NCBI RefSeq assembly: GCF_000284115.1
Contig: NC_017080.1
Location: forward strand, 2,430,001-2,462,000
Length of the DNA stretch: 32,000 nucleotides
Direction of reading: 5' to 3'
Source of the DNA: Phycisphaera mikurensis NBRC 102666
GTDB lineage: Bacteria; Planctomycetota; Phycisphaerae; Phycisphaerales; Phycisphaeraceae
Shown here in pieces: positions 11,583-14,500 of the stretch. Both the position numbers and the translations under genes were made by a program. Each line of letters opens with the position of its first letter. Position 1 is the first letter of the stretch. Below the pieces are notes generated by a model. It did no database searches and was not told the origin of the DNA. It saw only the letters and a list, made by a program, of their open reading frames with translations.

Positions 11583-14500
11583 GTGCCTGAGATCCCGCAG
11601 GCGCCATCCCGCAAGAGCGAGCCCGCCGCGCCCGCGGTGCGGGCGGCGTCGGCCGTCGGCTACGTCGAGCTCGCGGTCCGCAGCAACTTCACCTTCCTCG
11701 AGGGCGCCAGCCACCCCGACGAGCTCGTCGCGCAGTGCGCCGTGCTCGGCCACCGGGCCGCGGCCCTCGCCGACACCAACTCGCTCGCGGGCGTCGTCCG
11801 GGCTCACGTCGCCGCCGAACGCATCGGCATCCCGCTGCTGGTCGGCTGCCGGCTCGTTCTGCACGCGCCCGCGGGCGCGAGCCCCAACGAGCCCGACGCG
11901 ACCCGCGCCGCCTGGCTCACGCTGCTGGTCTACCCCACCTGCGTGAAGAGCTACGGCCGCCTGTGCCGCCTGCTCACCCGCGGCAAACGCCGCAGCGAGA
12001 AGGGCCGCTGCCACCTCACCCCGCACGACCTGCTCGAGCACCGCGAGGGCCTGATCGCGATCGCGGTGCCCGGCGACGGCCCGCTCGACGAGGACCGCGT
12101 CGACGCCATCCACCACCTCCGCCGCGCTTTCCCGCGCGACGACTTCTTCGTCGCCACCGCCCACGGCGACGGCGCCGACGCGGGCGCCGCACTCCGCCGC
12201 GCCCGCCACCTCGCCCAGCGGGTCGGCGCCCCCACCGTCGCCGCGCACGACGTGCTCTACCACGACCCCGCCCGCCGGCCGATGCAGGACGTCGTGGGCT
12301 GCATCCGCAACGGCTGCACGCTCGACGCCGCCGGCTTCCGGCTGAACCCCTCCGCCCACCGCGCGCTGCTGCCGCCCGAAGAGGTGGCCCGCCGCTTCGC
12401 CGACGACCCCCAAGCCGTCCGCCGCACCGTCCGCATCGCCAACCGCGTGCAGCGGTTCTCCCTCTCCCAGATCCGCTACCGCTACCCCGGCGAGGTCGTG
12501 CCGCCGGGCCGCACGGCGATGCAGCACCTCGCGCAGCTCACCTGGGCCAACGCCGGCCCGCGCCTCGGCCACGCCGTTCCGGTCGCCGGCTGGCCGACGG
12601 AGCGGACCGCCTTCCCGCCGGCCTGCCTCGTCGGGCCCTTTCCGCCCCCGGAGGTGCTGACGCCGCACGTGGAGGCGCACTTCCTCGCGACGCTCACCCA
12701 CGAGCTGAACCTCATCGCCGAGCTCGGCTACGCCCACTACTTCCTCACCGTCGAGGACCTGGTCGGCTACGCCCGCGGCCGCGGCATCCTCTGCCAGGGC
12801 CGCGGCGCCGCCGCCAACAGCGTCGTCTGCTACTGCCTGGGCGTCACCGACGCCGACCCGCGGCGCATCAACACGCTCTTCGAGCGCTTCGTCAGCCGCG
12901 AACGCAAAGAGCCGCCCGACATCGACGTCGACTTCGAGCACGACCGCCGCGAGGAGGTCATCCAGTACCTCTACACGAAGTACGGCCGCGACCGCGCCGC
13001 GCTCTGCGCCAACGTCATCACCTACCGCGGCCGGTCCGCCGTGCGCGAGGTCGGCAAGACGCTGGGGCTCTCGCTGGACGTCGTCGACCGGCTGGCCAAG
13101 GGCATCGATTGGTGGCACGGCGGCCCCATCGGCCCCGACCAGCTCGCCGAGCTGAAGCTCGACCCACGCAAGCCCGCCATCGCGCACCTGGTCCGCCTCT
13201 CCACCGAGATCCAGGGCTTCCCCCGCCACCTCGGCCAGCACAGCGGCGGCTTCGTGCTCACCGAAGACCCGCTCTGCGACCTCGTCCCGATCGAGAACGC
13301 CTCGATGGCCGACCGCACGACCATCAGTTGGGACAAGGACGACATCGACGCGGTGGGCATGTTGAAGGTGGACGTGTTGGCGATTGGGTTGTTGTCGGTG
13401 TTGTCGAAGGTGTTCGCGTTGTTGGGGGGGCAAGAACGAGCAAGCGAAGAAGCGAAGAAGCGAAGAAGCGAAGGAGTCAGCAGAACACAGGAACAGAACC
13501 ATGGAAGAGCGTCCGCACGCGTCACGGAGTCACCGCAACCTGATCGTCTGGCAGAGAGGCATGGCACTCTGCCGTCAGATTTACCGATGCACGCAGGCGA
13601 TGCCAAGCGGGGAGCTGTACGGGTTGACCGGCCAGATGCGGCGGGCTTCGGTGTCGGTTCCCTCAAATATTGCGGAAGGTTTTGGGCGGGAGGGACAGAA
13701 GGAGTTTCTCCGGCACCTGCGGATTGCGCAGGGTTCTCTGAACGAGCTTGCGACTCAGCACGAGCTGGCAACGTCGATGGACATGATCCCAAGCGATCCG
13801 ACGACGATCCGTTTGATCGAAGAAACCGACCTCGTCCTGCGGGGCTTTATTCGCAGCGTCAAGCAGAGCTTGAGAAAGACGCCATCTCCCTCTGCCTGAC
13901 TTCTTCGCTTCCTCGCTTCTCCGCTTCTTCGCTTCCTCCTCCTGGCTCGCTCCGCGACATCCTCCGCCTCCCCGACGACCCCGCCACCTACGACATGATC
14001 TGCGCCGCCGACACCGTCGGCGTGTTCCAGATCGAATCGAGGGCCCAGATGTCGATGCTCCCGCGGCTCCGGCCCAGGACCTTCTACGACTTGGTCATCG
14101 AGGTGGCGATCGTGCGGCCCGGGCCGATCCAGGGCGACATGGTGCACCCGTACCTGCGTCGCCGGCGGGGCGAGGAGCCCGTGGAGTACCCCGATGAGAA
14201 GGTCGAGTGGATCCTGGGCAAGACGCTCGGCGTGCCGCTGTTCCAGGAGCAGGCGATGCAGCTGGCGATCCACTGCGCCGGTTTCACGCCCGACGAGGCC
14301 GACAAGCTGCGCCGGGCGGTCACCGGCTTCCGGCACCACGGCCTCATCACCGCCTTCGGCGAGCAGATCACCGGCGGCATGATCGAGCGCGGCTACACGA
14401 AGGAATTCGCCGAGCGTGTGTTCAGCCAAATCCAGGGCTTCAGCCACTACGGCTTCCCCGAGAGCCACGCCGCCAGCTTCGCGATCCTCACCTACGCCAG

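Follow-up and report, generated by a model that had tools for sequence, protein, structure and literature searches.

The window analysed here, 32,000 nucleotides of the Phycisphaera mikurensis NBRC 102666 genome (NC_017080.1, positions 2,430,001 to 2,462,000), carries on its plus strand a dnaE2 open reading frame of 1431 codons (11271..15566), which encodes an error-prone Pol III alpha-type polymerase and stays open through two inserts. Family homology begins near residue 130, the Pfam domains found are PHP, DNA_pol3_alpha, finger, HHH_6 and OB, and the NF004225 error-prone DNA polymerase model matches with 1289.6 bits. Comparing the window with its close relative L094, we obtained a dN/dS of 0.09-0.19 for the dnaE2 exons, and because of this the pattern of substitutions leads us to conclude that dnaE2 is under purifying selection and is not a pseudogene. 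Directly upstream on the same strand lies an imuB-like gene for a Y-family polymerase with IMS and IMS_C domains (9369..11204), and this imuB-dnaE2 order is repeated in L005, L007, L095 and L096; the pair forms the mutagenesis cassette context of the first insert. A domain scan of the stretch from imuB to the end of dnaE2 found no reverse transcriptase, and the defence-system models of PADLOC matched nothing. Gene callers either split dnaE2 genes of this kind or call only the small gene nested in them, and in several lineages the polymerase is left as a C-terminal fragment of 470-566 amino acids, whose called start is the conserved Met of 'YDMI'.

Insert 1 (13428..13955, plus strand) makes up DnaE2 residues ~720-895 and lies between the DNA_pol3_alpha and finger domains (Taq residues 631/644), where DnaE2 has ~180 residues as against a spacing of 12 residues between the same positions in Taq Pol III alpha. 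Its length, ~173 codons, is a multiple of three, the G+C content over 13300-13900 drops from ~0.72 down to 0.57-0.62, and the peptide read in the dnaE2 frame, which includes VTESPQPDR and HGTLPSDLPMHAGDAK, matched no family in a Pfam scan. The comparison with Taq supports reading this DNA as inserted with respect to the DnaE2 family. The 5' arm (13430..13480, plus strand) consists of purine-rich tandem 8-nt units GAAGCGAA with a final GGAGTCAG, and the 3' arm (13896..13946, plus strand) of tandem units TTCGCTTC with an initial CTGACTTC, so that the TGA stop codon of the nested gene falls within the innermost stem pairs. The inverted-repeat search returned the arms as two inverted stretches of 51 nt with 86% complementarity (I1), enclosing a loop that holds the nested gene, and folding the insert as RNA gave a minimum free energy structure closed by a ~55-bp stem (z = -5.3). 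Arm mismatches, counted as a test of an RNA-level against a DNA-level stem, were G:U in 49 cases versus A:C in 40, a difference that is not significant and hence gives no direct indication of whether it is sense-strand RNA, and not DNA, in which the stem is active. The spacer 5' of the start codon (13481..13500, plus strand) contains a weak AGGA Shine-Dalgarno-like motif, and on reading the L005 and L007 spacers we found AGGAGG and GAGGAG, respectively, at that position. A sigma-70 scan of the cassette revealed no promoter-like site, the sigma-70 model being one that may not fit this phylum, and no direct repeats are evident by eye beside the arms, where a target-site duplication could have decayed if the insertion is old.

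The gene in the loop (13501..13899, plus strand; ATG at 13501, TGA at 13897-13899, 132 sense codons) encodes a four-helix-bundle (4HB) protein of 132 amino acids that belongs to the 23S rRNA IVS protein / S23p family, as indicated by matches to PF05635 (110.8 bits, E=5e-32, cut-off 33.8) and TIGR02436 (109.3 bits, cut-off 24). Its AlphaFold (AF2) model has four helices (pLDDT 89.8), the nearest solved structure found by Foldseek is 2GSC (TM-score 0.88, 40% identity), 2RLD is also close (TM-score 0.83), and both entries hold five chains. The 4HB ORF is a real gene; a database copy of the protein, P0001, begins at an internal ATG at 13561. A preliminary description of this DNA had placed the gene one frame off from dnaE2, with 37 of its 132 sense codons ending in A or T, and had seen the dnaE2 frame cross ~174 codons without a stop while the other two forward frames were closed. 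Exact counting confirmed all of this: the gene is in the +1 frame relative to dnaE2, 37 of its 132 sense codons end in A or T (22 in T and 15 in A) as opposed to 16/566, 8/216 and 10/244 in the flanking dnaE2 exons, there is no stop in the dnaE2 frame over 13420-13950, the 4HB frame is closed by its own TGA only, and six stops close the third frame, beginning with one at 13541. We also computed dN/dS separately for the frames, as had been proposed there, and obtained 0.12-0.44 for the 4HB frame between lineages, while across the insert the host frame gave 1.3-3.4 and a control frame 0.9-1.75. These ratios show, at the level of codon substitution, that protein-level constraint across the insert resides only in the 4HB frame and that the dnaE2 frame avoids stops without amino-acid constraint. 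Our data support a genuine dual-frame use of these ~400 nucleotides.

In at least 12 diverged lineages of Phycisphaerae/Planctomycetes a homologous cassette occupies this very site of dnaE2, always in this phase, and same-site read-through ORFs were found in L005, L007, L002, L015, L016, L017, L021/22, L031, L094, L095 and L096; among the copies collected, none of those located in dnaE2 has a closed host frame. In the window, a base-composition model gives an open frame of 173 codons a probability of ~0.002, and synonymous-codon shuffles that keep the 4HB protein and its codon usage fixed predict 3.5 stops in the dnaE2 frame, with a probability of finding none (P0) of ~0.01. Over the 12 lineages 30.4 host-frame stops were expected (~26 after calibration on ordinary genes) and 0 observed, and the product of the per-lineage zero-stop probabilities is ~1e-18. 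The lineages can be taken as close to independent, since deep pairs have nearly saturated synonymous sites (pS 0.67-0.83). The 4HB gene of L015 itself contains an in-frame TAA and the dnaE2 frame is nonetheless open. This comparison of lineages shows that the dnaE2 frame is actively kept stop-free across the whole cassette and that the length of the cassette is kept a multiple of three.

The deviant codon usage of the 4HB gene had been taken to mean that the DNA looks imported, a view that is not supported: the cassette is present at one site and in one phase in at least 12 lineages, among which the 4HB proteins share only 47-76% identity and synonymous substitutions are close to saturated. 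In every lineage the third-position G+C (GC3) of the cassette is below that of its host gene, which makes this a lasting trait of the cassette and does not mark it as newly arrived. Between the window and L094 the cassette is 68% identical at the nucleotide level (dS 0.87) as compared with ~90% for the exons (dS 0.31-0.48), a divergence so much larger that fast evolution or allele replacement is conceivable; by itself, the rapid divergence in this pair is a better fit to turnover or replacement than to simple vertical descent. Host and 4HB distances correlate with a Spearman coefficient of 0.41, the 4HB gene evolving much faster. L094 came from a phmmer search with the insert peptide of the dnaE2 frame, for which only 4 proteins matched among 1.84 billion representatives; because read-through ORFs are rarely called, such a peptide search is unfit as a survey of host genes. 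For 4HB loci, a scan of a genome collection with the single 4HB protein yielded 3 loci, and a metagenome scan, run with an alignment, produced far more. Another dnaE2 site is occupied by a cassette in L018, and a candidate remnant at the corresponding place in the dnaE2 of the window (~12590-12660) was dropped for want of repeat structure.

In addition to the L018 site, nested ORF-bearing copies lie in an Eco57I/MmeI-type methyltransferase (L048 and L056) and in a protein kinase (L025). As the preliminary description had anticipated for one of its readings, all intragenic copies, at four independent ORF-bearing host sites, have the host frame in the +2 phase. The reason lies in the 4HB protein sequence, which fixes 5-10 stops in the +1 phase that are always present and are never removed by synonymous shuffles (P0 = 0). 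No locus has a long antisense ORF spanning the 4HB gene. Free copies do carry stops in the +2 phase, the 25 high-GC ones 55 between them and the 43 low-GC ones 334, and stop triplets occur in the arms of 24/31 free copies versus 5/15 nested ones, so the family has no inherent stop-free frame, contrary to the idea that it would be found in all copies. Of the two explanations put forward earlier, that only insertions in the single open phase survive or that the element has evolved a read-through frame of its own, the data favour the first, with continued selection added to it, and the host-phase stops of the free copies speak against the second. In the free high-GC copies the ratio of observed to expected +2 stops is 0.59 as against 0.86 in ordinary genes, and 7 of them are stop-free in +2 versus 1.4 expected; this deficit is a residue that favours a built-in stop-free frame.

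The hairpin architecture extends well beyond dnaE2. Strong flanking inverted repeats were detected at 40 of 69 non-redundant 4HB loci and at none of 177 controls, and the tandem period in inverted-repeat 4HB loci was 7 nt in 19 and 8 nt in 19. Cassettes are located in rRNA (a cassette of the same kind sits inside 23S rRNA in L091), beside tRNA, in intergenic DNA, and in the methyltransferase, kinase and dnaE2 genes. Of 62 free copies, 51 have an upstream neighbour in the same orientation, and together with the lack of a cassette promoter this points to dependence on host transcription. A second hairpin, insert 2 (14664..14830, plus strand), has no ORF and lies in frame in dnaE2 (residues 1132-1187), within the HHH_6 region and 3' of 'SGWACSLE'. 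It shares with insert 1 the 8-nt unit and the inner junction (GAAGTCAGCAGG ... CCTGCTGACTTC), and its arms are 42 nt long and 88% complementary (I3; folding z = -6.6). At this site L007, L016 and L021/22 have arm-derived inserts, and L002, L005 and L017 are empty.

The explanation that we favour, and regard as probable, is that insert 1 is an IVS-type hairpin cassette that was anciently inserted in a surface loop of DnaE2, has been kept there with its frame held open by selection, and is read through. The cassette consists of a promoter-less, Avd-like (PF05635) 4HB gene in the loop of a long stem, with inverted 8-nt tandem arrays as arms, and would have entered the surface loop at the palm/finger junction long ago in the ancestor of a Phycisphaerae clade, to be retained since. 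Judging from the sequence, translation of insert 1 as a tolerated surface loop is the most likely outcome: ribosomes on dnaE2 would read straight through and yield a polymerase with an unstructured loop of ~175 residues, insert 2 would add a second loop of ~56 residues, and the 4HB protein would be made separately by internal initiation on the dnaE2 transcript. The +2 phase would be the only one able to host the cassette, since the 4HB sequence forces stops in the other forward phase and there is no long antisense ORF. After insertion, selection may have removed or avoided T-ending 4HB codons before AA, AG or GA, and coding sequence presumably tolerates the arms because none of their units has a stop in any frame being read. 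More speculatively, RNase III might cut the stem, as in rRNA IVSs, releasing a stem-capped 4HB mRNA and lowering dnaE2 expression. Several points speak against the favoured explanation: an unconstrained peptide of 175 residues at the palm/finger junction is a large burden, for which a removal step would be simpler, and a 50-bp stem is expected to hinder ribosomes or attract RNase III. The rapid divergence of the cassette between the window and L094 and the arm mismatches, with no surplus of G:U, also count against it. A wider proposal, which we find rather doubtful, is that these cassettes are widespread, undescribed, promoter-less mobile elements whose Avd-like pentamer recognises the 7/8-nt units and which ride host transcripts, colonise rRNA, intergenic and coding DNA, persist in genes as a 'translated intron' that selection keeps open, and in Phycisphaerae are possibly tied functionally to DnaE2.

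Removal of the insert before the protein is finished, either by stem excision and ligation or by ribosomal bypass, would leave DnaE2 insert-free and make the open frame a side effect. The long closing stem would bring the exon ends together, the host-frame peptide is unconstrained, and IVSs in rRNA that are built in this way are cut out at the stem by RNase III, according to the account of these elements in PMC4990558. We consider this unlikely, as removal or bypass would leave no reason for the frame to stay free of stops or for the length to be divisible by three, and both features are kept in 12/12 lineages and at four other sites. Furthermore, we know of no case in which bacterial RNase III products are religated. 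Bypassing of the T4 gene 60 type reportedly has as its signature a take-off codon and a landing codon that match, next to a stop. An Rfam scan over 13200-15000 (E <= 1), which gave only sub-threshold, generic hairpin (miRNA-precursor) matches on insert 2, contained no ribozyme or intron family match, which also counts against removal and led us to reject a self-splicing intron or ribozyme-bounded element. An intein was rejected as well, the junctions differing between lineages and having neither an N-terminal Cys/Ser nor a C-terminal His-Asn followed by Cys/Ser/Thr, and the conserved protein being in the other frame. The fragmented 23S rRNAs, whose pieces stay functional according to the part of PMC4990558 that deals with them, suggest instead that stem cleavage or separate initiation could split dnaE2 functionally into two assembling pieces, an N-terminal one (PHP and palm) and a C-terminal one (finger to OB), read-through being minor. 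Gene callers do split the gene, with the C-terminal part starting from the Met of 'YDMI'; that Met, however, is conserved in insert-free polymerases too, the C-rich DNA before it has no Shine-Dalgarno-like motif, the N-terminal part has no terminal stop, and an open frame would not be needed, all of which makes a split very unlikely.

The retention of the cassette in dnaE2 might also be adaptive, the Avd-like 4HB protein working with the ImuB/DnaE2 mutasome much as Avd partners the error-prone reverse transcriptase in diversity-generating retroelements (DGRs). The fold resembles that of Avd (TM-score ~0.8 to 4DWL and 8UB8) with a weak PHROG Avd match (E = 0.005), the 4HB gene has long been under purifying selection inside dnaE2, and dnaE2 accounts for three of the five nested sites. 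Since the same cassettes occur in rRNA, beside tRNA, in intergenic DNA, and in methyltransferase and kinase genes, and the dnaE2 bias is explicable by one ancient insertion and local copying, we judge such an association quite improbable. Chance openness in a high-G+C background, which the preliminary description had allowed for, draws on the fact that the +2 frame is often open in high-GC genomes, with P0 up to 0.33-0.51 for a few copies; the joint probability of ~1e-18 over 12 lineages and the window P0 of ~0.01 refute it, and as a decaying dnaE2 pseudogene is at odds with the exon dN/dS, either possibility is next to negligible.

Among the known systems closest to the favoured reading are the intervening sequences of 23S rRNA that carry an S23p / PF05635 ORF in Leptospira and Coxiella and, in the description given in PMC4990558, share with our cassette the protein family in the loop, a stem tens of base pairs long made by terminal inverted repeats, and the absence of a promoter of their own. 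Those elements reside in helix 25 or 45, whereas the window copy is in the protein-coding dnaE2 with the host frame open throughout, and the cassette arms are tandem 7/8-nt arrays, a feature not mentioned in the description of the Coxiella IVS given there (PMC4990558). Paired groups, each with 3-5 units of 7 or 8 nt in tandem, one group per strand, with variable spacing and in many copies, are reported for Geobacter metallireducens in PMC2700814, whose text on these repeats interprets them as 'putative global regulator / IHF binding sites' and states no link to a 4HB gene. The class 2 unit given there (PMC2700814), TCTCCGTS, is complementary to the GACGGAGA unit of L005 and L007. In the one Geobacter pair that we examined, unlike the window cassette, no gene lies between the two sites. 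Rickettsia palindromic elements (RPEs) had been cited as a precedent for tolerance inside ORFs, and this comparison fits the arms and the ORF-less copy in insert 2, which, like RPEs and other MITE-like insertions, is in-frame palindromic DNA at a permissive protein site; both inserts (13428-13955 and 14664-14830) are read through, as RPEs are, and have lengths divisible by three. To our knowledge, RPEs carry no gene. The cassette differs from them in its 132-codon gene in another frame, its tandem-array arms and its organism.

Out-of-frame nested genes are known in bacteria, such as comS inside srfAB, and so is viral overprinting; here too one DNA stretch gives two products from different frames of the same strand, but the nested gene is the older and constrained one, it is part of an inserted element, and the host frame is constrained only against stops. 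With inteins and homing-endonuclease genes the cassette shares selfish insertion at a conserved polymerase site, destruction of the gene upon imprecise loss, and long persistence, while its gene is in a frame other than that of the host, its junctions have no conserved splicing residues, and it has no endonuclease. The 4HB protein has the four-helix-bundle fold of Avd and a weak profile match to it, with only 13-16% sequence identity. A literature search turned up no report of PF05635 cassettes inside protein-coding genes. The favoured reading would mean that IVS-type hairpin-ORF cassettes, known from fragmented 23S rRNA, also inhabit protein-coding genes and survive there because they are read through. 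It would also provide a natural, replicated case of overprinting (12 lineages, ~130 codons) in which one of the frames is protein-coding, selection on the other acts against stops alone, and the cost is directly measurable. The polar tandem 7/8-nt arrays that form the arms in most family members offer a testable handle on IVS/S23p elements and their hairpins, three permissive insertion sites are marked for engineering in a Pol III alpha-type polymerase, and in annotation an error-prone polymerase could be mis-scored as broken across a whole bacterial class.

Elsewhere in the window a third hairpin without an ORF (I20; 25126..25359, minus strand) is built from a different unit, GAGACGRA, with ~11 copies in its long arm. 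It is oriented with minus-strand genes, having an aminotransferase-like ORF (25358..26629) on one side and a DinG-like helicase ORF on the other.

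In the window, whose G+C content is ~73%, a dnaE2 ORF of 1431 codons (11271..15566, plus strand) directly follows an imuB-like gene (9369..11204, plus strand) and carries within it, one base downstream of its own phase, a second plus-strand ORF of 132 codons (13501..13899). Profile searches matched this nested ORF to PF05635, the 23S rRNA intervening-sequence (IVS) protein (E = 4.9e-32), and to TIGR02436, 'four helix bundle protein' (4HB). Its structure model is a confident four-helix bundle (pLDDT 89.8); among solved structures it is closest to 2GSC and 2RLD, and then to Avd of diversity-generating retroelements. 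The hand count in the preliminary description of 37 A/T-ending codons among the 132 proved exact, compared with 34/1026 in the flanking dnaE2 exons; likewise, the dnaE2 frame indeed crosses the insert without a stop, through 173 codons, and the third forward frame is closed by six stops, the first at 13541. By base composition an open frame of 173 codons has P ~0.002, and synonymous shuffles holding the 4HB protein and codon usage fixed gave 3.5 expected stops in the window's dnaE2 frame, the probability of none being ~0.01.

The 4HB gene is enclosed in a hairpin cassette (insert 1, 13428-13955) whose 5' arm (13430-13480, 51 nt) consists of tandem 8-nt units GAAGCGAA and whose 3' arm (13896-13946, 51 nt) consists of tandem 8-nt units TTCGCTTC, the two being complementary at 86%. 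The predicted RNA fold (z = -5.3) has a ~55-bp closing stem and carries the ORF in its loop, and the innermost stem pairs contain the 4HB stop codon (CTGACTTC). This architecture, a stem of inverted repeats with an ORF-bearing loop, is that of the Coxiella 23S rRNA IVS, for which the passages of PMC4990558 on this element describe a 28-bp terminal-inverted-repeat stem, an S23p ORF in the loop and RNase III cleavage within the stem. Compared with Pol III alpha structures, insert 1 stands in place of a 12-residue palm/finger link, residues 714 and 896 of the window DnaE2 aligning with Taq residues 631 and 644.

The nearest 4HB homologues occupy the window's own dnaE2 site (site A): P0007 on a Phycisphaeraceae chromosome, P0006 in a Planctomycetes MAG and, in the same placement, P0002, P0014, P0043 and several metagenome contigs. 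All lie in the +1 phase relative to dnaE2 and after imuB, and in every one a single ORF spans the entire cassette. A close relative, locus L094, was obtained by searching with the dnaE2-frame peptide of the insert. The site-A set comprises twelve lineages with 4HB proteins 47-76% identical. Arm units vary among them (GAAGCGAA in the window, GAGACGGA in loci L005 and L007, GCGACGGA in L015 and L031, GGTGTCGA in L016 and L017, GGGACGGA in L021), yet both arms match each other inside each element. At L005, L007 and L096, public gene calls cover, besides the 4HB gene, just a C-terminal dnaE2 fragment of 470-566 aa, leaving the N-terminal 1.7 kb uncalled though one ORF covers everything; dnaE2 is likely to be systematically mis-annotated in this clade.

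When dN/dS was computed frame by frame, the 4HB frame proved constrained (0.12-0.44), whereas the dnaE2 frame over the same nucleotides is not (1.3-3.4; third frame as control, 0.9-1.75). A Pfam search with the dnaE2-frame insert peptide returned zero family matches. A comparison of the window's dnaE2 exons with those of L094 gave dN/dS 0.09-0.19, which marks purifying selection, so dnaE2 is alive despite the insert. Dual coding is thus asymmetric: the 4HB frame encodes a real protein, and the dnaE2 frame need only remain open, with a length divisible by three.

Across the twelve lineages no dnaE2-frame stop was observed in the 4HB gene, against 30.4 expected under the synonymous-shuffle null, and the product of the per-lineage probabilities of a stop-free frame was ~1e-18. 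In ordinary genes at the same loci, used as a control, the ratio of observed to expected stops was 0.86, so the calibrated expectation is still ~26; the lineages are close to independent because synonymous sites in deep pairs are near saturation (pS 0.67-0.83). No dnaE2-located copy had a closed host frame, and since these copies were identified via flanking homology, regardless of frame status, ascertainment cannot account for this. The dnaE2 frame is open even at L015, where an in-frame TAA (L015 425-427) stands at a conserved Phe/Tyr codon of the 4HB gene, owing either to gene decay or to sequencing error. Selection keeps the dnaE2 frame open and the insert lengths divisible by three, and so upholds stop-free dual coding across a bacterial clade.

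The preliminary description had offered two explanations of the open frame, that only insertions in the single open phase survive in genes or that the element has a built-in stop-free frame, and had associated chance openness with intragenic copies in any phase. Among the loci collected, a long ORF enclosing 4HB always ran in the +2 phase of the 4HB gene, never in +1, and no long antisense ORF spanned it. The nested copies include one at a second dnaE2 site (L018; in window numbering, residues ~455 and ~470 flank it), two in an Eco57I/MmeI-type methyltransferase between motif I and the 'YGVDKNP' motif (L048, L056) and one in a protein-kinase ORF (L025). The +1 phase of 4HB always contains 5-10 stops that no synonymous shuffle can remove, while a +2 stop arises only where a codon ending in T precedes AA, AG or GA, a combination that can be avoided; hence the restriction to +2, and the data favour the first explanation. 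As for the second, free copies, those outside protein-coding ORFs, do contain +2 stops, with 55 across 25 high-GC copies and 334 across 43 low-GC ones, and stop triplets occur in the arms of 24/31 free versus 5/15 nested copies. A stop-free frame is thus not inherent in the family; insertions are filtered by phase, and selection then keeps the frame open. Free high-GC copies nevertheless have a +2 stop ratio of 0.59, below the 0.86 of ordinary genes, and seven of them (L034, L035, L040, L047, L071, L091, L012) are stop-free in +2 against 1.4 expected (P = 2e-5); some of these may descend from nested copies. P0123, a called 184-aa ORF, runs arm to arm in the +2 frame.

Distances among host genes and among 4HB genes are correlated (Spearman 0.41, P = 0.005), which, together with the constant site and phase, fits one old insertion with vertical inheritance. 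Nucleotide identity between the window and L094 is ~90% in the exons (dS 0.31-0.48), 68% in the 4HB gene (dS 0.87; protein 65%) and ~57% in the arms, which are built of a different unit; the cassette thus evolves several-fold faster than the host gene or is occasionally replaced by a related allele. The cassette does have the low GC3 that had made the DNA look imported (0.71 against ~0.96 in the window), but lower cassette GC3 recurs in every lineage and so is no evidence of recent import.

A second, ORF-less hairpin (insert 2, 14664-14830, plus strand) lies in frame at dnaE2 residues 1132-1187 (site B), and its repeat unit and inner junction (GAAGTCAGCAGG ... CCTGCTGACTTC) are those of insert 1. 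Site B is filled with arm-derived inserts in the window, L007, L016 and L021/22, each built of the unit found at site A in that genome or, in L021, of a unit differing from it by one base, and is empty in L002, L005 and L017. The 3' arm of insert 1 (13896-13934) and the 5' arm of insert 2 (14711-14749) are 95% complementary, more than either insert's arms are to their own partners (86% and 88%, respectively), which suggests sequence exchange between the inserts; local copying or gene conversion between sites A and B would be the simplest reading. Pairing of these two arms would loop out a 776-nt finger-domain exon. Just 5' of each 5' arm (13300-13430 and 14590-14665) dnaE2 codons are G/T-ending (ttg, gtg, ggg, att) with a GC skew of +0.3 to +0.4, and C-rich DNA (skew ~-0.32) directly follows each 3' arm; the G-rich stretch before the 5' arm is also present in L005, L007 and L017.

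In the wider family, a strong inverted repeat flanks 40/69 non-redundant 4HB loci having enough flank, versus 0/177 control positions. Of these 40 elements, 38 have arms made of tandem repeats (period 7 nt in 19, 8 nt in 19), and the 5' arm is purine-rich in 36/46 elements. In the dnaE2-nested L095 (3850-4470) polarity is reversed, with a C/T-rich array 5' of 4HB and a G/A-rich array 3', possibly through loop inversion by recombination between the arms. Free copies follow their upstream neighbour at 30-160 nt; that gene points the same way in 51/62 cases, and in 29/31 loci below 50% G+C. A sigma-70 scan, whose model may not suit this phylum, found no promoter-like site in the window cassette, and the element probably relies on transcripts of its host. 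At L091 (1-1196) a same-clade homologue lies inside bacterial 23S rRNA (Rfam LSU model positions 664-1402) and is a genuine rRNA intervening sequence; the L043 cassette immediately precedes a tRNA gene (5471-5554). In 2009, a report on Geobacter metallireducens (PMC2700814) described paired tandem octa-/heptanucleotide sites on opposite strands and interpreted them as IHF or global-regulator sites; their class 2 unit, TCTCCGTS, is complementary to the GACGGAGA unit in this family. Our literature search found no paper tying tandem-repeat arms to 4HB genes or describing 4HB cassettes nested in protein genes. IVS hairpin cassettes with a PF05635 ORF are known; what is new is that such a cassette has become entrenched, in frame, within protein-coding genes, a finding that is real and wider than was visible from the window sequence alone.

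The main competing account is that the insert is removed before or during translation, by splicing or bypass. We disfavour it, because with removal neither an open frame nor a length divisible by three would be needed, and an Rfam scan of 13200-15000 gave no ribozyme or intron signature. We infer instead that dnaE2 is translated straight across both inserts, so that DnaE2 would gain two extra, probably disordered, loops at tolerant positions, and that 4HB translation would begin separately, at its own start on the shared dnaE2 mRNA; AGGAGG in L005 and GAGGAG in L007 stand 5-8 nt upstream of that start. More speculatively, and by analogy with rRNA IVSs, the stem might form on untranslated or antisense-free transcripts and be cut by RNase III, which would free a stem-capped 4HB mRNA and lower dnaE2 expression, and a 4HB oligomer may bind the tandem units.

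Elsewhere in the window, a perfect 21-nt tandem repeat, GGACGGGGCCAGGCCCCGGGT (8073-8137, 3.1 copies, 100% matches), lies upstream of the imuB-like gene. A third, ORF-less hairpin (25126-25359), oriented with minus-strand genes and flanked by an aminotransferase-like and a DinG-like helicase ORF, is built of the unit GAGACGRA, with ~11 copies in one arm and ~2.5 in the other; the DinG-like helicase frame happens to stay open back across the whole hairpin, to 25446.
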